This document shows positions 8,553-52,329 of a stretch of DNA of 64,000 bases, piece after piece. Where the stretch lies: positions 96,001-160,000 of IMG/VR virus record IMGVR_UViG_3300027969_000043; one strand, 5' to 3'. The notes under the pieces are model-generated. The model had not been told where the DNA came from. It did no database searches and saw only the letters and a program-made list of their open reading frames with translations. The DNA is from a virus. Each line of letters starts with the position of its first letter. Positions within the stretch are counted from its first letter, which is position 1. The position numbers and the translations under genes are program-made.

Positions 8553-8573
8553 AACAAAACAAAACAAAAAAAA

Positions 8574-9182
8574 ATGGAAAAAAAGATTTATGTAGAAGTT
8601 GGTTCAAATACTGGAACCGATACACAACGATTTGTTAACGATGATTCAATAGTTTATTGCTTTGAGCCATCAATGGAATTATCGTTTAATTTATGGGAGC
8701 GATATAAACATCACGATAATGTAATTGTATTACCTTTTGCTATTGATATTGAAAACAGTATTAAAAAATTTAACGTTGCTGGTACATCAAATTGGGGTTG
8801 CAGTAGTTTAAATAATTTTGATAGTAATATTGCACATAAATGGCCAGGTAGACCTGATTTTATGTTTACCCATTCATATGTGGTACCAACAATAACACTT
8901 TACGATTTTATTAATTTATATAATATTGAACACATTGATTATCTGTGGATAGATGCCCAAGGTCATGATTTTAATGTTATTAAAAGCCTTAAAGATAAAA
9001 TTAATATAGTAAAAGAAGGCAGATGCGAAGCCGCTCATAATGTTACGTTGTACGAAGGTGTTAATAACAATTATCAAGATATTATCGATTATTTAAGTAA
9101 CTTTGGATTTGAATCAGAAATTGAATTAGACCGTTCTGGATTTGGTGCTGAATGTGATGTTTCATTTAAAAAAAGAATATGA
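8574..9182 (+). CDS. FkbM-family methyltransferase
   Basis: VEVGSNTG, CFEP, GCSSL, IDYLWIDAQGHD. Confidence 0.85.
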   Translation: MEKKIYVEVGSNTGTDTQRFVNDDSIVYCFEPSMELSFNLWERYKHHDNVIVLPFAIDIENSIKKFNVAGTSNWGCSSLNNFDSNIAHKWPGRPDFMFTHSYVVPTITLYDFINLYNIEHIDYLWIDAQGHDFNVIKSLKDKINIVKEGRCEAAHNVTLYEGVNNNYQDIIDYLSNFGFESEIELDRSGFGAECDVSFKKRI

Positions 9183-12488: not shown

Positions 12489-12515
12489 TAAAAAATAAAA
12501 ATAAAAAAAAAAGAA

Positions 12516-20650: not shown

Positions 20651-20680
20651 ATAATAACAAAAATTAAAAGTTAAAAAAAA

Positions 20681-21523
20681 ATGAAAAGAAGAATCTCTAT
20701 CGGGGAACCGATATCTAATCCTACAGCACAAATCTGTATCAACAAATCCAGACTTAAAGTCTACAACAAAGAAACCTCACCAACTTATTATTTAGAAAAA
20801 GGACAAGAGTTTCAAATCGAATTATTCAATCCAACAAAAAACACACTTTTAGCAAAAATCCAATTAAATGGAAAAGCTATATCACAAGGTGGTTTGGTGT
20901 TAAAGCCTGGCCAACGCGTGTTTTTAGAACGCTATTTAGATGTTGCTAAAAAATTCATGTTTGACACATACGAAGTATCAAATACAGAAGAAGTTAAAAA
21001 AGCCATCGAAGACAACGGCGATTTTAAAGTTGAATTTTATAAAGAATCTAATCCAACCCTTGTATATGGTACGGTAACAACATATAATACAAACAATCGA
21101 TTTACACTAACTGATAATTTTAATACTACAGCTCCTAATAATTACCTTAATCTTACTGGTAATATTACAAATACAACTTCGACGTATAGCTCTGGTATTG
21201 TAAATTGTAGTAATAGCTTTACTAATAATGTAACCAATGATAGCTTTGAACCTATACAACAAAAACCAAGACTTAGAAAAAGCTTAACCAAAAGCATAGA
21301 AACTGGTCGTGTTGAAGCTGGAAGTAGTTCAGACCAAAAATTTGAATATGTAAACAAAAGTTTTGATTACTACGCATTTCACACCGTAGAATGTAAACTA
21401 CTACCAATATCACAAAAAATAAATACGGCAGAAGATATCAACGTAAAAAGATATTGCACAAACTGTGGGACAAAACAAAAACCAGAATTTAAATTTTGTC
21501 CTAGCTGCGGAGAAAAATGCTAA
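20681..21523 (+). CDS. zinc-ribbon-containing hypothetical protein
   Basis: C-terminal YCTNCG...FCPSCG; Asn/Thr-rich linker. Confidence 0.7.
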   Translation: MKRRISIGEPISNPTAQICINKSRLKVYNKETSPTYYLEKGQEFQIELFNPTKNTLLAKIQLNGKAISQGGLVLKPGQRVFLERYLDVAKKFMFDTYEVSNTEEVKKAIEDNGDFKVEFYKESNPTLVYGTVTTYNTNNRFTLTDNFNTTAPNNYLNLTGNITNTTSTYSSGIVNCSNSFTNNVTNDSFEPIQQKPRLRKSLTKSIETGRVEAGSSSDQKFEYVNKSFDYYAFHTVECKLLPISQKINTAEDINVKRYCTNCGTKQKPEFKFCPSCGEKC

Positions 21524-24107: not shown

Positions 24108-25958
24108 TTATCTCAATTCAGCAACATTAAATGTTGGAATACCATCTACTCTTACATGTCCGTAAAATCTATTATTGACACTCTTCTTAGCGTAACGAGT
24201 CATGATACCTTTAACTGGAGCAAAGTTAAATGGATTGTACATGGTTGGAGTTAATTGCAACGGCACGTATGGTGCGTAGATGTAACCTGTATCCAACAAT
24301 GACTTACCTTTATGTCCAATAATTATAGAGTATGATGGAGAATACGGGTCACGATAAACTTGATATCTACCGCCTAATGTACCGATTCTTTCAATACCCA
24401 TGTTATATTGGTCTTGCTCAGGATTAGCATCACTTACGTGGAAATATTCTAAATCATCGAATACTGCAGATACTTCTGAAGATACAACGATAAAGTTAGC
24501 ACCACCACGAAGAGTTGACTTGTGGATTTGAGCAGAAATTTGGTTAACTTTAGTTATTAAAGTTTGGTTCCAATCTTTCTGTGTGTAAGGACTAGAAGAT
24601 GAAGAAGCTTTTCTCCAACCGTTATAATCCCAACGTAATTGCCATGCAGCAACTTTACGCAAATCTCTCAAGATTTCTCTATCGATTTCCGCAGCAACTT
24701 GCTCAGATAACATTGCTGTTAATTCAGCTTCAGCATCGATGTTGTGGAATGCACTAACGTCTTGCGCTAATTCTGGAGACCAAGTAGCTCTTAATTTTCT
24801 TTCTTCTACAGAAACTACAACGTCAGTTAAAGTGAAAGAAACTTCACCCATTTCAGTTTCAAGTTCCAATGTAGCGTATTCAGCCCAAGCAGCAGTAAGT
24901 GCAGAGAATGAAGCTAATGTAGTTGCAGAAGCACCAACATAACCATCAAAAGTAGCCGTACCAGCAGCAGCAGAACCAGATGCAGTTGTACCAACTGGGT
25001 GAGTTAAGTCAAGACCCAAGAAGATATAACCAGTGTTATCAGTTAAATTTGTGTAATTAACGATACCTTGACCATATACTTGAGTAATAACACGGAAAGG
25101 AATAGCTCTGTTAGCAGCAACAATAACATTACCAGCATTATCTAAAATGTTAGAGCTAGTAACAACTTGTAAAGAAGCTAAGAAAGATTCTGTATCCATT
25201 GGGTTACCATCAGGACCAGTTAATACTTGTTTGTTAGAAGCACCACCTGTAAAACCAGATACAGCAACAACTAATTGTCTTAACGAACCATCAGCAGCAA
25301 CAGGACCTACAACAGCTGTAGAAACCGCAGCAACACGTGTGTATGAACCATCGCCGTTACCAGAGAAAACTGGAACATTACTCATAGTACGGATAGTCAA
25401 TGTACCTTTTGAGTTATCAAATAAACCATCATCATAGAATAAATCATAAAGATTTTTTGCTAAGAATGGTGTAACTACGCAAGTACCAGCAGCTGGTAAT
25501 ACGCAACTAGGAATACCAGAAGATGCAAAGCTAGTATGAGCTGAGAATGTTGTACCGTAAACATCAGAACCAGGTTGGTTTTGTGTATAGTCATTACCAG
25601 CAACACCAGAACCGTCTACACGACTAGAAGTCTGAGGTACGAAATAGAACAATTTACCAATTGGCATGTTCATAGCTTGTACAGACACGATGTCATTAGC
25701 TAATAATTTAGAGAATACTCTTCTCACGATAGGGAATACAACAGTTTCGAATGAACCTGAAGAGGTTGAAGTTGTTGATTCAGTTAATAATGAAGAAGCT
25801 TGGTTCTCATATAATTGAGCGATGTTTTCTTTTACGTGTCCTTTAAGACCTTCAAGAAAACCTAAGCTTTCCCATTTTGCTTGGGTTTCTTTACGGATAG
25901 CCTTCATGTGGTTTAATCCGATGTTCCCAACTTGTCCAGATGTTAATAAATGTGACAT
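24108..25958 (-). CDS. gp23: major capsid protein, T4 gp23-like
   Basis: FPIVRRVF, VSVQAM..P.G, RKLRATWSPELAQD, AEAEL..LSE..AAEIDREI, IYAPYVPL, P..GIMTRY. Confidence 0.95.
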   Translation of the reverse strand: MSHLLTSGQVGNIGLNHMKAIRKETQAKWESLGFLEGLKGHVKENIAQLYENQASSLLTESTTSTSSGSFETVVFPIVRRVFSKLLANDIVSVQAMNMPIGKLFYFVPQTSSRVDGSGVAGNDYTQNQPGSDVYGTTFSAHTSFASSGIPSCVLPAAGTCVVTPFLAKNLYDLFYDDGLFDNSKGTLTIRTMSNVPVFSGNGDGSYTRVAAVSTAVVGPVAADGSLRQLVVAVSGFTGGASNKQVLTGPDGNPMDTESFLASLQVVTSSNILDNAGNVIVAANRAIPFRVITQVYGQGIVNYTNLTDNTGYIFLGLDLTHPVGTTASGSAAAGTATFDGYVGASATTLASFSALTAAWAEYATLELETEMGEVSFTLTDVVVSVEERKLRATWSPELAQDVSAFHNIDAEAELTAMLSEQVAAEIDREILRDLRKVAAWQLRWDYNGWRKASSSSSPYTQKDWNQTLITKVNQISAQIHKSTLRGGANFIVVSSEVSAVFDDLEYFHVSDANPEQDQYNMGIERIGTLGGRYQVYRDPYSPSYSIIIGHKGKSLLDTGYIYAPYVPLQLTPTMYNPFNFAPVKGIMTRYAKKSVNNRFYGHVRVDGIPTFNVAELR

Positions 25959-27391: not shown

Positions 27392-28090
27392 TTAACCGAT
27401 TAAGAAATTATCTAAACCCTCATTAAGATTTGATTTTTGTATGATTTTGTTTTCAACAAAGGGTTTTGCTTCTTCTCTGTTTTTAAACATCCAAGAGCCT
27501 GGGGTACTAGGCGCAGTAACAACGTCCCAACATATTAATTCAAAGTCGTCTTGAACAATGAAATCACCCTTGATTTCTTTTAATGAACCTACACCTCTAG
27601 AAGACACACCAATCATGATATTATTTCTTAATAAGTTTGCAACTTCGTCACCCTTTGTTGAAACAATACCGTAATTAATATACCCCTTGGTCATTAGGAT
27701 TTCCATTTTACCCATTAGGGTTTTTCCTTCCCACCATGTTTGTATGATATTATGGGATACTCTATCACCAGCAATAACGCTAGATTCAGGGTGGTCTAAT
27801 TCTCCAATCGCCCTTCTTTCCCTGATGGCTTGTTGATAAATTTCGTTTTGTGTTTTAAGTATTTCTTCTGGATAAATCCTTCCGTTTCTATTTTTTACAC
27901 CATATTTTTGGAGCACCACATAAACAACTAGGCTATCTGAGTCATCTTGACCCATTTCTAATTTTTTAAACTCTCTTATAAGAGATTGGTTTTTAGGGTC
28001 ACTAGGTGATATGAATCCAGCGTCATTTTCAATCAAATAACCTGTACCAACTTGACCAGCCTTTATTACTTTTAAATCCATATTTATCAT
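27392..28090 (-). CDS. gp21: prohead protease, T4 gp21-like
   Basis: KNRNGRIYP, GELDHP, VSH, GVSSRGVGS, VQDDF, DVV..PS. Confidence 0.93.
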   Translation of the reverse strand: MINMDLKVIKAGQVGTGYLIENDAGFISPSDPKNQSLIREFKKLEMGQDDSDSLVVYVVLQKYGVKNRNGRIYPEEILKTQNEIYQQAIRERRAIGELDHPESSVIAGDRVSHNIIQTWWEGKTLMGKMEILMTKGYINYGIVSTKGDEVANLLRNNIMIGVSSRGVGSLKEIKGDFIVQDDFELICWDVVTAPSTPGSWMFKNREEAKPFVENKIIQKSNLNEGLDNFLIG

Positions 28091-30250: not shown

Positions 30251-32296
30251 TTATTTGTTTAACATGTCATCAATATCGTTAATCATATTGTTAATACCCT
30301 CATTTATTTTTAAATTTTTATTGTAAATTTTGGTATTTTCTATTGGTTTAGGTTCGTTATCAACCATAGTGATTAACCTGTCAACAAATATAGATTTATA
30401 TTTTTCAGCCCTTTCGTTTAATTTATTTTGAATTTTTTTCTTTTCCTCAACTAATAAATTATCAATTCTTTTAATTTCTTCAGCGGTTGTTTCAGCTGCG
30501 GTCTCTTCAGCACCAGCAACTTCACCAGCAGCCGCTGCTTCACCACCAGCTTCAGTAGAAGCTGCCGCTTCTTCACCCTCAGCACCAGCTTCACCACCAC
30601 TAAAATCTAAATCAGTTTCAGTTGTACCACCACCACCAAATCCGCCACCTAATCCAGCTGTGCTACCACCGCCTCCACCTCCACCCGCAGGGGCTGCACC
30701 ACCATCAGCTGCCGCACCACCGCCACCTTCCATTGCAGCATTAATATCACCATAAATTCTATCAACAGTATCAAACATACCAGTATGCTTGATAACTTGT
30801 GCTGTATTTGCAATTTCTGCAGCTGCTGCTTTTTCCATTCTTTGCTCTAGAAGGTCTTGCTTGATATCGTCATCAGACCAACCAAGAATTTCTCTCTTAG
30901 CTCTTGTCATTGACATAGCACCAAAACCATTACCAGCATCAGAAACAGCATCTTTGTACAACGTAACTTTTAATTGCGTATGTTCAACCTTAAGCATTTC
31001 GGCCTGTGTTGATGGGTTATTTAATGTTAATGTAAAATTATCCAAATCATCCTCAAAACCCAATACGTATAAGTGAATGATAACAATTTTATTTAATTCT
31101 TGTAACATTGCTTGCTGTATTCTATTAACGGTTCTAGAGAATCTGATATCCTGAAGCGCTAGGTTTTTACCCTCACCAGTTGTTTCATCAAAACCTAAAA
31201 ATGGTTTAGGAACTCTTAGTGCTGTAAATAATTTTTTCTGTAAGTATTCAATATCGGCTATCTGGTCTAGATTAGCAGCACCAGGCAACGTATCAATCGG
31301 ATTTGGTGCGTCCTCGGTTCTTACTGGAATGAAGTAATCTTGGTCGTTTGATAATTGATTGTATCTTAAATCAATTTGACCTGTTGCGGGGTCAACAATA
31401 GGTGCTCTTTTAAATCTATTGGCAATTTCATTTACGTATGCTTCAACATCCTTATCATCAATATTACCAACATAAATTTTATATATCCTTCTTTCTGGTG
31501 CTCTAGTAACACGATATACCAACATAGCATCTTCAGAAAGAATTAGTTGTTTCCAAATTCTTCTAGCCTTTTCCAAAACAGATGTACCGTATGGTAATCT
31601 TCTATCATCACCTAACAATCTAAAGTGCGCCATTTGCCAAGAATTAAACTCAACGTCACGACCTCTCCAGTAAAATTTAACCTTGTCTGATATATAATTT
31701 TCATCTGTTTTTTGTGTTAGCATATCAAATAAGCCACCATCACGTCTTTCCATTTCATAGTTTGGCATTTGTTTAACACCAACAACACCATTCTCATCGT
31801 CAATGTTAAGGTACACAAAATTATCACCATATTTACAAGTATTTCTTGTCCACATTGGTAACGATGTATGTATATCAAGTCTATTAAACAATAAATCCTC
31901 AACTATACCCTTAACTCTTTTGCTTTCAGAATAAACATTAACCATTCTACCGCTAGAATTTAATGTTGTTGATTCCTCCATCATGATATCCAAAGCAGCA
32001 GCAATTTCTGGATAAAATTCCATTGCTTCAAAATCAGAATAAGAACCAATTCTAGTTGTTTCATAATTTACAGCTTGTTGAAATAACCCAGTCTCAACTT
32101 TTTTCCATACTTGTCCTAAGTATCTATTTTGTTGCGCTTGTAATTTTGCTGTTTCGTATTCTTGCTTATCTGTTGTCTTTAGTAAGACATCCTTATTAAT
32201 ATTAAACCTTTGAGGTGCAGGTTCATTAATTTTAAATCCTTCAGGTCCTAATATTTTGCCTAGTTTCTGAAATATGGTTAAATTATTTTTTGCCAT
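30251..32296 (-). CDS. gp20: portal protein, T4 gp20-like, with a C-terminal low-complexity extension
   Basis: PEIAAALD, YGTSVLE, EDAMLVYRVTRAPERRIYKIYVGN, DYFIP, IDTLPG, DIEYLQKKLFTALRVP. Confidence 0.93.
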   Translation of the reverse strand: MAKNNLTIFQKLGKILGPEGFKINEPAPQRFNINKDVLLKTTDKQEYETAKLQAQQNRYLGQVWKKVETGLFQQAVNYETTRIGSYSDFEAMEFYPEIAAALDIMMEESTTLNSSGRMVNVYSESKRVKGIVEDLLFNRLDIHTSLPMWTRNTCKYGDNFVYLNIDDENGVVGVKQMPNYEMERRDGGLFDMLTQKTDENYISDKVKFYWRGRDVEFNSWQMAHFRLLGDDRRLPYGTSVLEKARRIWKQLILSEDAMLVYRVTRAPERRIYKIYVGNIDDKDVEAYVNEIANRFKRAPIVDPATGQIDLRYNQLSNDQDYFIPVRTEDAPNPIDTLPGAANLDQIADIEYLQKKLFTALRVPKPFLGFDETTGEGKNLALQDIRFSRTVNRIQQAMLQELNKIVIIHLYVLGFEDDLDNFTLTLNNPSTQAEMLKVEHTQLKVTLYKDAVSDAGNGFGAMSMTRAKREILGWSDDDIKQDLLEQRMEKAAAAEIANTAQVIKHTGMFDTVDRIYGDINAAMEGGGGAAADGGAAPAGGGGGGGSTAGLGGGFGGGGTTETDLDFSGGEAGAEGEEAAASTEAGGEAAAAGEVAGAEETAAETTAEEIKRIDNLLVEEKKKIQNKLNERAEKYKSIFVDRLITMVDNEPKPIENTKIYNKNLKINEGINNMINDIDDMLNK

Positions 32297-32595: not shown

Positions 32596-34377
32596 TTATT
32601 TTGAACCGCTAAATAACCACATATACTGACCTTTTGGGTCCTGCATATTTTTAGCAACAACTGGGCTAAAATTTGGTTTCGGTGCGGCTGTTTTATGTCT
32701 ATTTTCTTTCGATACAAACCCATTACCTCTCTGCGCATCAGTATCAACTTGGGTTGTACTTGCTACCCAACTATTTAACATAGCTTTAGTTTGTTTTTCT
32801 AACTTCTCAAGATTTTTAAATGAATGCTCTATAACCCATAAACACATTGCCATTGACATAATTAAATCATCATGATACCCGTCCATATGGTCAGCGCGGC
32901 CATTTTTATAAATAAACGTTTTCATTTCTGAAATCATTCTAGCCGACCTTATCTTAACAATGTTGTTTCTAATCTTTTCTTCAAAGTTTGAAACCATTTG
33001 TGTTCGGATTGAACTTACCTGAAGGCCAGGCACCTTGTTATCTTTTTTATAAGCATCCATTTGTCTTTGCTTGGTTGACAATATTTTACCGTTAGGTGTA
33101 TCATAATGCAAACGTTTGTAATCAAATTCCAATAATTTTAACACCGTTGAAACACCCATACCACCAGTTATATCGACAACCGTATATGCTTTGTATAGCT
33201 CGCCATACTCCTCAACCAATTGAGCTAATAAATCTGGCTGTATTTTACCCTGATATTCCATAACTTGCTCCATTGTTGTAAAATCCAACATAACTATTGT
33301 GGACGAATCCTCGCTATCACCTCTAGATACATCGACACCCATTATATATTGGTGCCCTTCCTCAGGTTGTTTCCAAATCCAAACTTCATTTTCAGCCCCA
33401 CTAACAAATTCTGGTTCCATAACATTTAATCTATCCTGCTCTTGAATAATGTCCTCGCTGATAACGTTACCACCAGAACCAATAAATGATACGTCCAATT
33501 CCTGCGCTATCATTCTAGAATCATTATTCATACCCCTACACATTTCTTCATACCAAGATGACGTAGGTTTAAACCCCCCATCAATCATTCTAGTATATGA
33601 ATCAAAACAAAACTCAATCTCATCAAATATCTCATCACCCTTAACCCATTTAAGGTCTTTATTATACCTTAAATCTTCATACCATTTCATTTCAATGATA
33701 TTAAAGTTGTTCTTTTTTGCTTTTGATTGGGCGTATGTTTCATAATAAAGTTTATCCATACCATTTGGTGTTGATATAAGCGTGGCCTTACCACCAGTAC
33801 CAAGCGCTGTTAACGCAGCACCAAACACAATAGCACCATTATCAATATATGCGGCCTCATCCATAACAAGATATGTCGGCGTAAAACCTCTAAGGGCATC
33901 TTTTGAAGTTGCAACCGCTTTTACACGGCTACCGTTTGGTAATTTTATTTCTTTTTTGGAATCTGTAATGAAAATACTTTTTGATTCATTTTTGTGTGAA
34001 CCATAATACTCTGGGCCCCAAACCCATCTAGGTAATTGTGAAACAAAATCTTTAATTTTGGCCAAGAATTCAAAAGCCAATTCTTGCTTATTTGCGATGA
34101 TAAGAACCGCTTCTGGATTCTCTTCATCGGCAAAACCTACCTTAATTGATAGATAAGCTGCTGTTGTTGTAGATACACCCGCCTGTCTAGGTTTAGTTAT
34201 TAAATTAAACCTATGATGCTCATAAGCGTGGCAAATTTCTTTTTGTCTTGGGAATAGTTTAAATTGAACAAAGCCTTCTTGGGTTTTATCAAATGTTTCT
34301 AAATAAGTCTCAATAGCGTATATTGGGCTAGATAAACATTTTGCATACTCCTTCATTATTTCTTGTCTTGTCAACAT
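32596..34377 (-). CDS. gp17: terminase large subunit, T4 gp17-like
   Basis: KPRQAGVST, LVMDEAA, ISTPNG, QEL..SF.GSG, GVDVSRG, HDDLIMS. Confidence 0.93.
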   Translation of the reverse strand: MLTRQEIMKEYAKCLSSPIYAIETYLETFDKTQEGFVQFKLFPRQKEICHAYEHHRFNLITKPRQAGVSTTTAAYLSIKVGFADEENPEAVLIIANKQELAFEFLAKIKDFVSQLPRWVWGPEYYGSHKNESKSIFITDSKKEIKLPNGSRVKAVATSKDALRGFTPTYLVMDEAAYIDNGAIVFGAALTALGTGGKATLISTPNGMDKLYYETYAQSKAKKNNFNIIEMKWYEDLRYNKDLKWVKGDEIFDEIEFCFDSYTRMIDGGFKPTSSWYEEMCRGMNNDSRMIAQELDVSFIGSGGNVISEDIIQEQDRLNVMEPEFVSGAENEVWIWKQPEEGHQYIMGVDVSRGDSEDSSTIVMLDFTTMEQVMEYQGKIQPDLLAQLVEEYGELYKAYTVVDITGGMGVSTVLKLLEFDYKRLHYDTPNGKILSTKQRQMDAYKKDNKVPGLQVSSIRTQMVSNFEEKIRNNIVKIRSARMISEMKTFIYKNGRADHMDGYHDDLIMSMAMCLWVIEHSFKNLEKLEKQTKAMLNSWVASTTQVDTDAQRGNGFVSKENRHKTAAPKPNFSPVVAKNMQDPKGQYMWLFSGSK

Positions 34378-40235: not shown

Positions 40236-41915
40236 TTACTTTTTTCTACCTTGACAATGCGCCTTTTGGCTAAATCCCTTTGGGTTATTACAATCTATGC
40301 TTTTTTTATATTTTGCTGACCACTTTTCTTTTAGTGCTTCCATATCAACAGATTCATCTGTACTATTTCCCCAGTTGGCAGCGCCAGCTTTTCTACACTT
40401 AACCAAAGCCCCAGAAGCATAAGCCGATGGCCATACATCATATCTAGCTCTTACTTTATGGTAACAAGCATCTTTTTTTGTTTTCTTTTTTTTCTTTTTA
40501 CCCTCTTCTACTACTTCATATATTTCATATTCATCTAAGATGTCATTAGAACCTTCTTGGAACATGTTATTTTTTTTAATGTTTTTTAATATAAATGCAT
40601 TTTCAAACATTTTGTTATAATCAACTTCTTCTTCATATGATTCAACATCAACACCTAAATTTTTTAATTTATCTAAGATATAATACATTTCCTCATTATC
40701 AGAAATTTCGGACTGAACGTCTTGTATGAATTCTTCTCGATTTATTTTATCACTAAAAGAAACCAATCTAGTTAAAATATGTAAAATTTTAGTATTTTCT
40801 TGTTTAAGATTATCATCATATATTTTGATTAACATCTTAGATTTCCAATCATCCAACGACATTTCGGCTAACATTGACGATTTCTCGAATTCATCTTGGT
40901 CAATTTCTCCACTTTTATATTTTTGTGTTATATCTCCTATTTTTTTACCATGCTCACCACTCAATCTTTGAAATTCGGCTTTCCAACCAGTTTTCATTGG
41001 TGTATTATCTTTTAATTTTTCAAAAGTATTTGGGTTAGCCAATTCGTTTACTTTAACGATTTCTTTTTCGTAAATCATTGATTTGAAAATATTATCATTT
41101 AACTTACGATTTTCACTACGAGTTCTATGCCACGTTACGAAAAAAAGTATACTATTTGATTTCCAATCAACTTTAGTTACTGTATAGTTACAATCCCTAT
41201 TTTTGTCGTAATATATATCACCTTCTTGTACCCATAAATCTGCCCATGGTGCCGATTCCCCATCCTCAAATAAATTTTCTGAATCATCAGTTTCTTCAGT
41301 ATCTTTAGTTTCGGTATCAGTTGTTTCACCGTCATCAGTGGTTTCGGTATCCGTAGTTTCTGTGTCAGTTGTTTCGGTATCGGTGTCATCAGTAGTTTCG
41401 GTGTCATCCGTTGATTCTTCATCGCCGTCACCCTTTCCAGAACTTTTTACTTTCTTTATGATATCTTTTTGGTCTTCAGCATCCATCTCACCAGTATGCG
41501 TTGCTGACAATAAAGAATTTACAGCAAATTTTTCTAAATCAAAATCTGGCTGACCTTGGTCTTCATTATATTTTCTAAGAGATTGTCCTAATTTACCTGT
41601 AAGTTGTTCTATGAATTTTTTAGGGTCTGACTCTTCGTCAGCTTCAACACCAGCATCAAACGGTTCGTCGTCAAATGGTTTATCACTTGAACCGCTATCA
41701 TCAGTTGCTGTATCATCAGTTGGAGTTTCTTCAGACGATGTATCTGCTTGGTCTTCTGTACCAGCATCATCTGTACTAAAATCTAAATCATCTGTAGGTT
41801 CTTCAGCGGGCGCTGAATCGGTTGGGGGTTCAGCTGGAGCTGGGGCCGCTTTAGCCCCTAGCTTCAACTTGTATTTTACTTCTTCTAATGGAGCTTCAAA
41901 AGACTCAATTAGATT
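40236..41915 (-). CDS. acidic modular head protein, likely the -1 frameshift extension of 41909..42850
   Basis: Frame opens right at the A10 run; no ATG for about 130 codons; C-terminal DACYHKV..WPSAYASGALVKCRK and KWSAKYKKSIDC..KGFSQKAHC modules. Confidence 0.65.
   Translation of the reverse strand, partial: NLIESFEAPLEEVKYKLKLGAKAAPAPAEPPTDSAPAEEPTDDLDFSTDDAGTEDQADTSSEETPTDDTATDDSGSSDKPFDDEPFDAGVEADEESDPKKFIEQLTGKLGQSLRKYNEDQGQPDFDLEKFAVNSLLSATHTGEMDAEDQKDIIKKVKSSGKGDGDEESTDDTETTDDTDTETTDTETTDTETTDDGETTDTETKDTEETDDSENLFEDGESAPWADLWVQEGDIYYDKNRDCNYTVTKVDWKSNSILFFVTWHRTRSENRKLNDNIFKSMIYEKEIVKVNELANPNTFEKLKDNTPMKTGWKAEFQRLSGEHGKKIGDITQKYKSGEIDQDEFEKSSMLAEMSLDDWKSKMLIKIYDDNLKQENTKILHILTRLVSFSDKINREEFIQDVQSEISDNEEMYYILDKLKNLGVDVESYEEEVDYNKMFENAFILKNIKKNNMFQEGSNDILDEYEIYEVVEEGKKKKKKTKKDACYHKVRARYDVWPSAYASGALVKCRKAGAANWGNSTDESVDMEALKEKWSAKYKKSIDCNNPKGFSQKAHCQGRKK
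41330..41415 (-). repeat. imperfect tandem repeat (about 15 nt) encoding TDTET/TDDTET
   Basis: Protein segment TDDTETTDDTDTETTDTETTDTETTDDGET; boundaries approximate. Confidence 0.6.
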
Positions 41916-41923
41916 TTTTTTTT
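41884..41923 (-). other. candidate -1 frameshift site: A_AAA_AAA slippery run plus 3' stem-loop
   Basis: AGT-A10-TCTAAT-T-GAG-T-CTT-TTG-AAG-CTC-C-ATTAGA on the minus strand. Confidence 0.6.
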
Positions 41924-42850
41924 ACTTCTAGACTCTTGTAACTCATCAATCATCTCATCCATCATACCCATTGCTCTTTCGATTGATAATTTACCTTCAT
42001 TTTTTTTATTCATTTTACCAGCTCTTAAAGCAGCTAAATCATCAGCGCCAATCTCATCAGGGTCACCAGCTAATTTAGCAATCTTTTCTTGTGCTGGGCT
42101 TAAGTCTTTTTCCATCATTCCATGAACAGCAGCCATTTCTGGCATTAAATCTTCATCAACCCCATGAACATCAACCCAATCATCACTCATACCTTCATTT
42201 TTTTCAAATGTTTCTGGGTCACGGTCTTGTTTATTAGCTGTAGCGTAATAAACTTTTTCACCCTTCTCGTCACCGTATTGTTTTTTCATGCTACCCATAG
42301 CTGGTTTGTCATACTCTTCCATTCCACCACCCATACCATAGGCTGAACCACCACATTCTAAACACATGCCCTCCATTGTCTGCGCTCCGCAACATTCGCT
42401 TGTCATATGACCTTCCATATTACCCTCTGCTTTAAAACCAGAACCTGACATTGATTCAAAAGCTGCATAATCTTCAGTTAAAAGTTTATCATCCAAGAAA
42501 ACATTAACCTGTCCAGATTTACCATAAGCCTCGTTAAGGCTATGAAACTTAAGATTTAAGTGCTTTAGAGCTTTAGCATAAGAAGGATATACCTCTTGTT
42601 TCTTATTTTGAAGACCACCCATGTATTGGAAATCTTCAACAACAAGATTGTTTTGCTTTTTAGTTATTTTAATATAATATTCGTGATTTTCTCTTACGAT
42701 ACCGTAAACATTACCATCTGGTCCTTTTTTTGTTAATTCAACAACCGATGTTTTTTTGTTTTCATTAATAGGCTTAATACCCATCAACTCTTTCATGCGC
42801 TCGGTTACTTGATAACCTTTAAGCCCAACTGGATTTATTTTTTCGTTCAT
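41909..42850 (-). CDS. hypothetical prohead core protein (short product ends ...SKKKI)
   Basis: INE/LNE/LTE sites; SECCGA..CLEC; MKKQYGDEKGEKVYYATANK; ATATTTAT at 42866-42873. Confidence 0.7.
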   Translation of the reverse strand: MNEKINPVGLKGYQVTERMKELMGIKPINENKKTSVVELTKKGPDGNVYGIVRENHEYYIKITKKQNNLVVEDFQYMGGLQNKKQEVYPSYAKALKHLNLKFHSLNEAYGKSGQVNVFLDDKLLTEDYAAFESMSGSGFKAEGNMEGHMTSECCGAQTMEGMCLECGGSAYGMGGGMEEYDKPAMGSMKKQYGDEKGEKVYYATANKQDRDPETFEKNEGMSDDWVDVHGVDEDLMPEMAAVHGMMEKDLSPAQEKIAKLAGDPDEIGADDLAALRAGKMNKKNEGKLSIERAMGMMDEMIDELQESRSKKKI

Positions 42851-42880
42851 AATTTTATTTATTTAATAAATATCTTAATT

Positions 42881-48641: not shown

Positions 48642-50084
48642 ATGAATAGAGAAGAACTTATTGCAAAAGCTAGAGATATCGTTAATCAAGACGTTGTTAA
48701 AGGATTTACAGCAGATTTTTTAAAAATGGCAGCTAATGATACCGTTAACCCAAATAGATTTGAAACATATTTAAAAAATATCTCAGAACAAGCTTGGGAC
48801 CCAGGCACTGAAGAAAATACTATCTTTACATATAGTCAAGAATTGGTTGATATTGTAAAAGAATTATTCCCCAAAAATCTAGATTATCCATATCTTCAAG
48901 AAAGCGGCGTAAATACAGTTACAACAACACATATAAAAAGTAAAAAAAAAATCGAAAAAGGTCCTAATGAGATGAAAACATTTATTAAAAGTTCATTACG
49001 CGAATCTATCGTACCCCAAGAACCATTAACACCAAAAGAAGCGGCTATAAAAGTATTAAAAATGACCAAGGCAAGAGAGTTTCCAACGAAACCGCTACAT
49101 AAGCTAATGGTAAATATGATAGAGCATATTGAAGGTTTAGAGGATGTTAAACTTATTGAAGAATACCTATTAGAAAAACTTAGAGATAAAAAAATATCAC
49201 ACGCTGTAAGAGTTTATGTTATTAATAAGGCTAGAATGGCACTTATTGATGCCAATACACCGCCACCCTCAATAAACGAAGGTAGAGAACACACCGATGA
49301 CGAAATTGTAGATTTTAATGAGATTGACCTTCAACAAGAATACAATAAATTAAATCAGCTGCTATTTAATGGTAATCTTCAGCCAGTAACAATGTTATGG
49401 AATAAAAGAAAAGGAGCACACGGCGTTGTTAAAGGTACTAGAAGCAGAGCTACAGGTAAAATAACCCTTAAATCCCTTAGCATGTCCCAATTCCTTAAAG
49501 TACCATATAGATTCTTTAAAGATGTCTTAGCACATGAAATGATTCACGTATTCTGGATGCAACAAGATGTCAATGCTAAACATGGTCCTTTGTTTGTCCA
49601 ACAAATGAACAGAATTAACTCAATGGGGTTAGGATTTAACGTTAGTGTAAGGTCTGATTCATCAGAAACATCTAAGTTTGAAATGTCTTCAGACGTTGTA
49701 AAGGAAGGTATGGAACTTGTTTTTCTATTAATGAAGACAGATAAAGATGATAATATGTTTTCGGTTATGAAATATGATGCATATAAATCACAAGGATATA
49801 GAATTATTGATATCTACAATTACTTAGTTAACAAAAAACCTAAGTATAGATTTGCCGATGGTGAATTCTTTTTATCAACAAATCCAAGACTACAAGCTTC
49901 AAAAATACAAAGAAGCTTTGGTAGCGTAAGTTATTCAAGGATAGATAATGCTGTGGCTAATGAACTTAAGCAAAACGCTAAATTTTTGTGTAAATTTGAA
50001 ATTAATAATTCAAATGACGAACCACAGTTGTCTGGCCCTGACCAACCAAATCCAGCACCACCAAAAAGCTTATTAGGATTTTAA
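48642..50084 (+). CDS. modular protein with a SprT-like metalloprotease domain
   Basis: YNKLNQLLFNG..LAHEMIH..KHGPLF; internal leader MKTFIKSSLRE. Confidence 0.7.
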   Translation: MNREELIAKARDIVNQDVVKGFTADFLKMAANDTVNPNRFETYLKNISEQAWDPGTEENTIFTYSQELVDIVKELFPKNLDYPYLQESGVNTVTTTHIKSKKKIEKGPNEMKTFIKSSLRESIVPQEPLTPKEAAIKVLKMTKAREFPTKPLHKLMVNMIEHIEGLEDVKLIEEYLLEKLRDKKISHAVRVYVINKARMALIDANTPPPSINEGREHTDDEIVDFNEIDLQQEYNKLNQLLFNGNLQPVTMLWNKRKGAHGVVKGTRSRATGKITLKSLSMSQFLKVPYRFFKDVLAHEMIHVFWMQQDVNAKHGPLFVQQMNRINSMGLGFNVSVRSDSSETSKFEMSSDVVKEGMELVFLLMKTDKDDNMFSVMKYDAYKSQGYRIIDIYNYLVNKKPKYRFADGEFFLSTNPRLQASKIQRSFGSVSYSRIDNAVANELKQNAKFLCKFEINNSNDEPQLSGPDQPNPAPPKSLLGF

Positions 50085-51259: not shown

Positions 51260-51736
51260 TCACACCTCCCCAATAAATTCATGGCTAAAACAAATTCTCC
51301 TATTGTCAAAGTAATGTTCTTTATACATGTTTTTTATGGAAACATCTTTTCTAAGTTTTTTATTTTTACTTGTTGCAACCCACAATGGCGAATTTTCTCG
51401 ATAATACCCCATCTTAGGGTGCGCGGTTCTTGAAAAGAATCTAAGACCTTGTTCCACGTGGATTTCACCTATTCCATTAGAAAATCTAACACCCATACCC
51501 ATACCTTGATAATCTGGGAGAATAACCGTCCTATGACTACGCCATGCATCCTTTAGTGTACCACTCGGCATTGCAATACTAGCACAAAACGCAACAATCT
51601 CATCTTCCCATACACCTAAATAACACCTAGCTGCTTTATTTATGTTACCATCTAAATAATGATAGTCTTTAAACATGGGCCAGATATTATGGCTTGTTCG
51701 ATATATCTCGAGATTGATTTTTGGGCGGGCAAAAAA
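51260..51736 (-). CDS. GNAT acetyltransferase domain, likely expressed by -1 frameshift from the upstream ABC ATPase
   Basis: HRTVILPDYQGMGMG; frame open from the slippery site (FARPKINLEIYRTSHNIWPMFKDYHYL); track start is 51676. Confidence 0.75.
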   Translation of the reverse strand, partial: FFARPKINLEIYRTSHNIWPMFKDYHYLDGNINKAARCYLGVWEDEIVAFCASIAMPSGTLKDAWRSHRTVILPDYQGMGMGVRFSNGIGEIHVEQGLRFFSRTAHPKMGYYRENSPLWVATSKNKKLRKDVSIKNMYKEHYFDNRRICFSHEFIGEV

Positions 51737-52329
51737 AAACCCTGATGGAATTCACCAGTATCAGTATCTATAACCCAATCAGGTTCTAACCAATCTAGTA
51801 TATCGCGGTGACATGTAGCTAAAACAATATTGTTTATATCATTATTTTTAACATATTTACTCAAAGACACGCTAGCAGCTTTTGCTACATTCCTATCTAC
51901 AACGCTTGTAAACTCATCAATGACAGCATTTGACTTTAATTTTCTAGCTAAATCAGCTCTAAACTTTTCACCGTTTGATAATACATGATATGGTTTATAC
52001 CAAGAAGGTATTGTATTTAACCCAACGGCACCTAACTTGTTTATTGATTCATCTGGAGATTCAAAATGTGATACGATTGATTTTGTACCATCCCATTCTG
52101 GTGAATCTTCAACACCAAAGTTTTTTAGTAATGTTGACTTACCAGAACCGCTGGAACCAACAATTACACCAATCTTAAATTGTTTTGGAATGTTACTTGG
52201 AAGAATCCAAGGATAAAATTTAGATGTACCGTCAAATATACAATCAAATGCTCTTTCACTGGCTTTGATAAAATCATCTCTATCTACTGTAGAGATTAAA
52301 GGGGTTGAAGTTTTAATTAATTTTTCCAT
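51652..52329 (-). CDS. soluble ABC-family ATPase
   Basis: GSSGSGKST, LSNGEK, AVIDEFTSVVDR, ATCH; no membrane partner gene nearby. Confidence 0.85.
   Translation of the reverse strand: MEKLIKTSTPLISTVDRDDFIKASERAFDCIFDGTSKFYPWILPSNIPKQFKIGVIVGSSGSGKSTLLKNFGVEDSPEWDGTKSIVSHFESPDESINKLGAVGLNTIPSWYKPYHVLSNGEKFRADLARKLKSNAVIDEFTSVVDRNVAKAASVSLSKYVKNNDINNIVLATCHRDILDWLEPDWVIDTDTGEFHQGFFLPAQKSISRYIEQAIISGPCLKTIII
51731..51742 (-). other. candidate -1 frameshift site G_GGU_UUU / U_UUU_UUU
   Basis: Minus strand CAG GGT TTT TTT TTG; the -1 frame is closed by TGA just upstream and open downstream. Confidence 0.65.

Follow-up and report, generated by a model that had tools for sequence, protein, structure and literature searches.

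Why does a gene of a T4-like phage stop immediately after a run of ten A residues, with a long open frame continuing in the −1 register, and is this break an accident or a programmed frame switch? The gene lies in a 64,000-nucleotide (nt) stretch, hereafter the window, which comprises bases 96001-160000 of the 168,871-bp IMG/VR viral contig IMGVR_UViG_3300027969_000043 (∼48% complete by CheckV, 32% GC). Comparison with related junctions supported the view that the frame switch is programmed and evolutionarily maintained, the expected products being a 313-amino acid (aa) form and an 871-aa fusion sharing the same N terminus. Slipping of this sort is a known trick; the gene family that uses it here is undescribed.

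Direct reading of the junction established its geometry. The upstream open reading frame (ORF; P0001, the short form, 313 aa) occupies 41909..42850 on the minus strand, as do all junction features described below. Its 3′ end reads AGT AAA AAA AAA ATC TAA, giving a protein that ends in ...SKKKI*. The A10 run, the predicted slip site, is at 41914..41923 and supplies three AAA Lys codons in frame and one further A; decoding in the zero frame ends two codons past it. The −1 frame is closed right before the run, or overlapping its 5′ edge, by TAG (41930-41928) and TAA (41924-41922), which together span 41922..41930. It is then open from 41921 to 40239, and this extension (P0002, 40236..41921) comprises 561 codons, two Lys of the run among them, and a stop; its translation reads NLIESFEAPLEEVKYKLKLG... 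A preliminary description of the locus had given this ORF, the position of the run and a −1 frame lacking a start behind TAG/TAA, all of which direct reading bore out. Its estimate of a fusion of about 871 aa was reproduced by recalculation (312 + 559 = 871), the 559-aa extension being larger than the body to which it is joined. The ATG-free stretch that it described is also real but was put at about 130 codons, whereas the first ATG of the −1 frame is codon 145. The sole early start codon in that frame is a TTG at 41867 (41865..41867), codon 19. The peptide encoded in the −1 frame just past the run, N-L-I-E-S-F-E-A-P-L-E-E (41880..41912), is followed by VKYKLKL and contains two [L/I/V]-x-E motifs, LIE (41912-41904) and LEE (41888-41880), both candidate sites for cleavage by a T4-type prohead protease.

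Viral contigs searched with the 313-aa protein yielded 80 loci at 40-78% identity, and collapsing identical junctions left 64 distinct ones, the window included, with 40-85% protein identity. Wherever both parts of the gene were present, the downstream homolog was in the −1 frame at 78 of 79 loci. All 64 distinct junctions carried an unbroken A run, of ten residues in 52, nine in 10 and eleven in 2. In 63 of the 64, this run was combined with the −1 relation and with a −1-frame stop at its 5′ edge, so that the KKK-stop break, whose fate in related phages the preliminary description had left to be checked, proved to be retained almost throughout. The lone exception, L080, is A9 at a site that reads A10 in its sister loci. 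In nearly all junctions the −1-frame stop lies 0-27 nt 5′ of the run, and the zero-frame stop lies 1-24 nt 3′ of it. The run itself sits in three different codon phases, and each of the junctions includes one or more A_AAA_AAA heptamers in phase. This genome of 32% GC is not short of A10 runs (five in 169 kb); retention of the whole arrangement in 63 of 64 distinct junctions, however, is more than chance would give.

Codon usage at the site provided further evidence. The Lys triplet is all-AAA in 64/64 junctions, compared with 4/33 KKK triplets elsewhere in the same genes (Fisher p 9e-21), where AAG accounts for 18% of Lys codons and occurs even in the nearly invariant NKK pair (16/62). Against synonymous-codon shuffles over 150 kb, gene bodies contained 8 A9 runs where 21.9 were expected, and a single run of A10 or longer where 10.1 were expected. 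Long A runs are thus fixed at the junction and disfavoured by selection everywhere else in these genes. The zero-frame tail V-Y-T-L-K-stop (15 nt) was found in 21 junctions, and its variation falls mainly at zero-frame third positions (entropy 0.63/0.45/1.31 over the three positions), indicating that the end of the short form is translated and constrained. On the −1 side, homology begins 5′ of any ATG, GTG or TTG in 41/64 junctions, and in 12/64 none of these codons occurs in the first 100 codons of the frame. Taken together, these patterns show that both predicted outcomes, the short form and the fusion, are under selection.

We lean slightly towards RNA polymerase (RNAP) as the main agent of the slip. 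According to this proposal, the host multisubunit RNAP, redirected by phage sigma factors, would realign the rA:dT hybrid on the run, so that some of the mRNAs would gain one A. The 871-aa fusion, reading ...S-K-K-K-N-L-I-E... across the junction, would come from normal translation of such +1-A mRNAs, and the length of the run would set a fixed ratio of short to long form. One review reports that bacterial RNAP holds a 9-10 bp RNA-DNA hybrid and slips efficiently on nine A or T (PMC5009743). The conserved feature here is a homopolymer of 9-11 nt in varying codon phase, not a heptamer. Transcription is favoured because the run matches the hybrid in length, because its phase varies and because no downstream stimulator is conserved. 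Two sigma-70-type genes were found in each of three complete relatives; in the same three, a search for the RNAP β-subunit (PF00562) gave no match, and a search for a T7-type enzyme (PF00940) was uninformative, its control having matched nothing.

The products would be identical if the ribosome slipped −1 instead, and this account, though less probable, has evidence in its favour. Two tRNA-Lys would shift on the in-phase A_AAA_AAA, or the ribosome would slide along the A tract; no RNA structure would be required, and a longer run would merely multiply the chances of slipping. Several observations favour this account or weigh against a transcriptional slip. Every version of the site, as noted above, includes the in-phase heptamer. 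Within gene bodies, in-phase A7 and A8 are depleted (49 against 65.6 expected and 15 against 25.2 expected, respectively) whereas out-of-phase runs are not, a pattern suggesting that sequences prone to ribosomal slippage are selected against. Other genes, too, contain A9-A10 runs in frame, and a freely slipping polymerase sits uneasily with this. A very divergent phage RNAP could escape Pfam searches. Sliding of ribosomes on long A tracts and iterated AAA codons is reported in PMC4363877. Set against the ribosome, seven A would be enough, but every relative has at least nine, and a shorter run in dnaX-type A_AAA_AAG form is used by none. The codon phase of the run varies but its length does not. 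A conserved downstream stimulator is absent, and the local hairpin abuts the run instead of standing 5-9 nt from it. Polymerase and ribosome slippage may also act together.

The hairpin deserves closer description, since the preliminary description had noted it together with an apparent −1 frameshift, naming the lambda and T7 cases as known examples. It exists at 41884..41913 on the minus strand and directly follows the run, as the preliminary description stated; the perfect stem written there did not hold up. Its sequence, TCTAAT-T-GAGT...GCTC-C-ATTAGA, forms 6+4 bp with two interruptions, and its predicted energy of −8.6 kcal/mol is unexceptional (z = −1.2; 25 of 200 shuffles fold equally well). 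The hairpin is lineage-specific and is not conserved in the relatives. More generally, the 50 nt downstream of the run showed no conserved structure across the 64 relatives when compared with shuffles and controls (median z −0.15, against 0.02 for the control). The hairpin was accordingly rejected as a slip stimulator, being weak in the window and without a conserved counterpart, and a hairpin-stimulated ribosomal −1 frameshift of the lambda or T7 type was not supported, a run of 9-11 A moreover exceeding a slippery heptamer. Folding in the 50 nt upstream of the run was enriched only in a subset of relatives. In these (L004, L009, L010, L017, L048 and L052), a self-complementary coding motif, AINEMD..II, forms a stable hairpin of −9 to −14.5 kcal/mol whose end lies 5-9 nt upstream of the run; this hairpin is neither present in the window nor universal.

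A second conserved recoding site in the window bears on the same choice. On the minus strand, an ABC-type ATPase ORF (51652-52329) would be joined to a GNAT ORF (51260-51676) at a T9 run at 51731-51739, the sense strand reading CAG GGT TTT TTT TTG CCC. T9 was retained in 47 of 51 distinct frameshifted junctions of this pair; two in-frame variants carry T10, and more distant relatives, at 57% identity or less, lack the run and have the pair in frame. The site thus resembles the A10 site in its 9-nt homopolymer, its −1 relation, its in-frame variants one base longer and its run-free distant relatives, and differs from it in being poly-T and in linking a pair of enzymes, not a structural-type protein. 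E. coli RNAP needs longer A runs than T runs for slippage (PMC6260861), and T9 at the second site compared with A10 at the first agrees with this requirement. The T9 site likewise holds an in-phase U_UUU_UUU, which fits slippage by the ribosome.

One further run has the same local sequence, AGT AAA AAA AAA ATC, and lies at 48942-48951 on the plus strand, in frame inside ORF 48642-50084. Just two close relatives were found, one keeping it as A10 and the other as A9, too few for the run to serve as a non-conserved control. Stops close the two remaining frames within 0-11 codons, and seven codons further on comes MKTFIKSSLRE, an internal Met leader. Slippage at this run would truncate the protein to ∼105 aa, in the manner of dnaX gamma.

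Joined versions of the split gene raised the possibility of a switch at the DNA level. Eight ingroup database proteins are fused. In all six fused ingroup genes with readable DNA (L082, L083, L084, L175, L176 and L177, two of them from JGI sample 3300076144) the run is unbroken and exactly one A longer than in split relatives, demonstrating that adding one A joins the frames. The joined junction of fused versions reads KKK-(S/T/N)-L. These +1-A versions may reflect errors in the homopolymer, length variation in the DNA or assemblies derived from transcripts. Were they true length variants, the run could act as a contingency locus, replication slippage toggling a population between A10, which would give the short form alone, and A11, which would give the fusion alone; virions would then differ genetically. 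Homopolymers of this length are mutable, and besides the six longer in-frame runs, L080 is one A shorter. We nonetheless consider such a switch improbable. Of the 64 distinct junctions, which come from many samples, 63 have the split state as consensus, selection at the protein level acts on the zero-frame tail, and the variants may be nothing other than errors of assembly. A lytic phage needing both forms in each infected cell, moreover, cannot obtain them by genetic switching.

Continuous genes were also found in an outgroup. The two outgroup homologs, P0013 and P0014 (737 and 766 aa, encoded at L166:3001-5214 and L167:3001-5301), are single ORFs in which the N-terminal domain is joined to a conserved three-helix core. 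Their Lys runs are interrupted, with no long A run, and their gene neighbourhood is as in split relatives. These findings imply that a continuous gene gave rise to the split state, or arose from it. Single uninterrupted homologs, which the preliminary description had named as a finding that would refute a frameshift, exist solely in this outgroup and among the rare +1-A variants.

Two separate genes, the second starting at TTG 41867 or another internal codon, would be a very improbable arrangement. TTG can act as a start, and gene callers do annotate the downstream ORF separately. This TTG, however, encodes Leu19 of the −1 frame, part of the conserved KYKLKL motif, and −1-frame residues upstream of it are conserved. 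Relatives with CTG or TTA at that Leu offer no possible start until more than 100 codons further on, and the residues upstream are conserved all the same. With homology preceding any start codon in 41/64 junctions as well, TTG 41867 was ruled out as an independent start and the fused-product reading of the preliminary description stood. Artefact or decay, by which an indel would have disrupted a single 871-aa gene or left a pseudogene, is effectively refuted: homopolymers are error-prone, in-frame versions are present in databases and the outgroup has a single ORF, but recurrence of the identical break in 63/64 independent junctions, together with the in-frame reading of two other A10 runs of this genome, excludes sequencing error, and conservation extends to both frames and to the arrangement of stops.

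The genomic setting of the split gene includes machinery of head assembly. A T4-type head module occupies the minus strand of the window, with the terminase large subunit at 32596-34377, the portal at 30251-32296, a T4 gp21-type prohead serine protease at 27392-28090 (Pfam Peptidase_S77, PF03420, 80 bits against a cut-off of 27; PHROG 207, head maturation protease) and a 616-aa Gp23-family capsid protein at 24108-25958 (Pfam Gp23). The split gene lies upstream of this terminase-portal-protease-capsid module. Complete relatives carrying the split gene family are 353-362 kb in size with direct terminal repeats, and the nearest capsid relatives belong to uncultured huge phages, Flavobacterium phage immuto and Microcystis phage Mel-JY01. 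The Gp23 match covers only residues 330-601 of the capsid protein; the ∼330 N-terminal residues form an unexplained extension, possibly a long propeptide. Elsewhere in the contig, A8-A10 leaders immediately precede several ATG codons. In the window, A9-A10 runs abut ATG starts on the plus strand at 8566-8574, 12503-12512 and 20673-20681, as A-rich leaders replacing Shine-Dalgarno sequences.

We then considered what the two products might be. Alignment of 43 homologs of the short form delineated an N-terminal domain that is conserved (about residues 1-125), an acidic middle that varies and a helix at the C terminus, and the AlphaFold2 (AF2) model (predicted local distance difference test, pLDDT, 66) contains a confident small alpha/beta N-domain (residues 30-110) plus helices. 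The extension runs from the junction peptide through Pro/Ala and acidic linkers to a conserved three-helix core (about 80-165; 90-165 in the AF2 model), acidic TDTE repeats and a helical region, and ends in a basic Cys/His module (about 469-545). Its AF2 model reaches a pLDDT of 56, and it matches PHROG 727/38880/3477, for which no function is annotated. The basic Cys/His module (DACYHKVRARYDVWPSAYASGALVKCRK...) is encoded at 40236-40640 on the minus strand as part of the extension. In L038, L045, L049 and L050 it is a separate downstream ORF, and it is common to cyanomyovirus genes, including P-SSM2 gp114 and an S-SCSM1 'virion protein' adjoining terL; it therefore appears to be mobile. In a tblastn search of 50,697 phage records the short form had no match, only the C-terminal module finding counterparts, in cyanomyoviruses. 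No named family in Pfam or PHROGs covers the whole proteins or their pieces. A PDB sequence search and ESM Atlas feature searches returned nothing, and a fold search of both AF2 models against PDB, Atlas and BFVD returned only uncharacterised phage proteins or noise.

The [L/I/V]-x-E motifs suggested a possible role. In T4, gp21 cleaves head-core proteins after (L/I)-x-E. An [LIVM]-x-E motif lies within ∼12 residues after KKK in 59/64 junctions, usually right before (T)KYKLK and typically as ...VNE/TKYKLK, and further [L/I/V]-x-E motifs mark domain borders (INE30 in 42/43 homologs, LTE126 in 36/43 and LFE219 in 39/43). The combination of such a motif after the junction with a gp21-type protease makes a cleaved carrier-cargo fusion reasonable. 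The Gp23 capsid protein of the window and the occurrence of the C-terminal module in a cyanophage 'virion protein' beside terL also fit this idea. The short form would then be an abundant head-associated carrier or core protein, and the fusion would carry the C-terminal modules into the prohead, where the gp21-type protease would cut at [L/I/V]-x-E past the junction and at the linker sites, releasing the basic Cys/His cargo. We put this carrier, fusion and protease-released cargo forward tentatively, as a possible function. Within it, the preliminary suggestion that the ratio of short to long form meters how much C-terminal cargo enters the prohead is plausible. Some findings speak against head cargo. 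[LIV]-x-E is a short motif and these proteins are Glu-rich, and the protein is without family or fold match. A candidate N-terminal capsid-targeting tag, ...VTERMKELMGIKPINE, was found on no other ORF by regular-expression and short-BLAST searches of the 169-kb contig (∼48% of the genome). A shared capsid-targeting tag was accordingly rejected as a candidate, the tag being seen solely on this protein in the contig.

The consequences extend beyond this phage. Gene callers split the gene in essentially all metagenomic assemblies, with the result that the 871-aa product and the true architecture of the family are missing from databases. If the slip is transcriptional, the A10 and T9 sites would represent a phage lineage repeatedly using slippage of the host polymerase to fix protein ratios. 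The cargo proposal, if true, would describe a route for loading injected or internal head proteins that is distinct from the short targeting peptides of T4 and new for giant phages. To our knowledge, translation in Bacteroidota-type hosts is not led by Shine-Dalgarno sequences, and recoding in them has been little studied. The 64 diverged versions, the in-frame outgroup and the +1-A variants together constitute a natural data set that could help to tease out which properties turn a homopolymer into a programmed slip signal in such hosts. Our literature search found no paper on homopolymer recoding in jumbo phages or in this gene family. The most far-reaching formulation, namely that a clade of ∼350-kb Bacteroidota-type T4-like jumbo phages made at least two ancestrally continuous genes homopolymer-gated, with host RNAP slippage dosing protease-releasable capsid cargo, is a bold proposal and, taken as a whole, rather unlikely to hold.

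How, finally, does this locus compare with known systems? The T4 proteins IPI-III, Alt, gp67, gp68 and gp22 are core or internal proteins processed by gp21 at (L/I)-x-E. The split gene resembles theirs in accompanying a T4-type head module with Gp23 and S77, and its products resemble them in their acidic linkers, basic modules and [L/I/V]-x-E at domain borders. It differs in that no sequence or fold homology to them was found and no capsid-targeting tag is shared in the contig. With lambda G/GT and T7 10A/10B it shares the plan of a phage structural-module gene with overlapping frames, encoding a major short form and a minor one with a C-terminal extension. Those genes use 7-nt ribosomal slippery sites, whereas here there is a homopolymer of 9-11 nt and no conserved stimulator; and unlike them, this gene neither lies between tail tube and tape measure nor encodes a capsid.

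Closer likenesses are found among bacterial genes broken at homopolymers. In Thermus thermophilus dnaX (tau/gamma), as reviewed in PMC5009743, a 9-nt homopolymer gives rise to mRNAs with at least one extra A and to two N-coterminal products in a set ratio. Slipped dnaX mRNAs encode the shorter product; here they would encode the longer. Citrobacter rodentium tssM1 and Yersinia pseudotuberculosis tssM are genes of a structural machine and, like the present gene, are broken just after a long poly-A run, as set out by Gueguen et al. 2014 (PMC4256274). By that account the tssM1 run is A11, A residues added to the mRNA restore the frame, and two length variants are made, both of which are needed, as is their ratio. 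That case is a bacterial secretion-system gene whose mechanism was established by experiment; here the gene is that of a phage, the run is A10, the mechanism is inferred, and the arrangement is clade-wide at 40-85% identity. The closest experimentally proven parallel is tssM1, with Thermus dnaX next.

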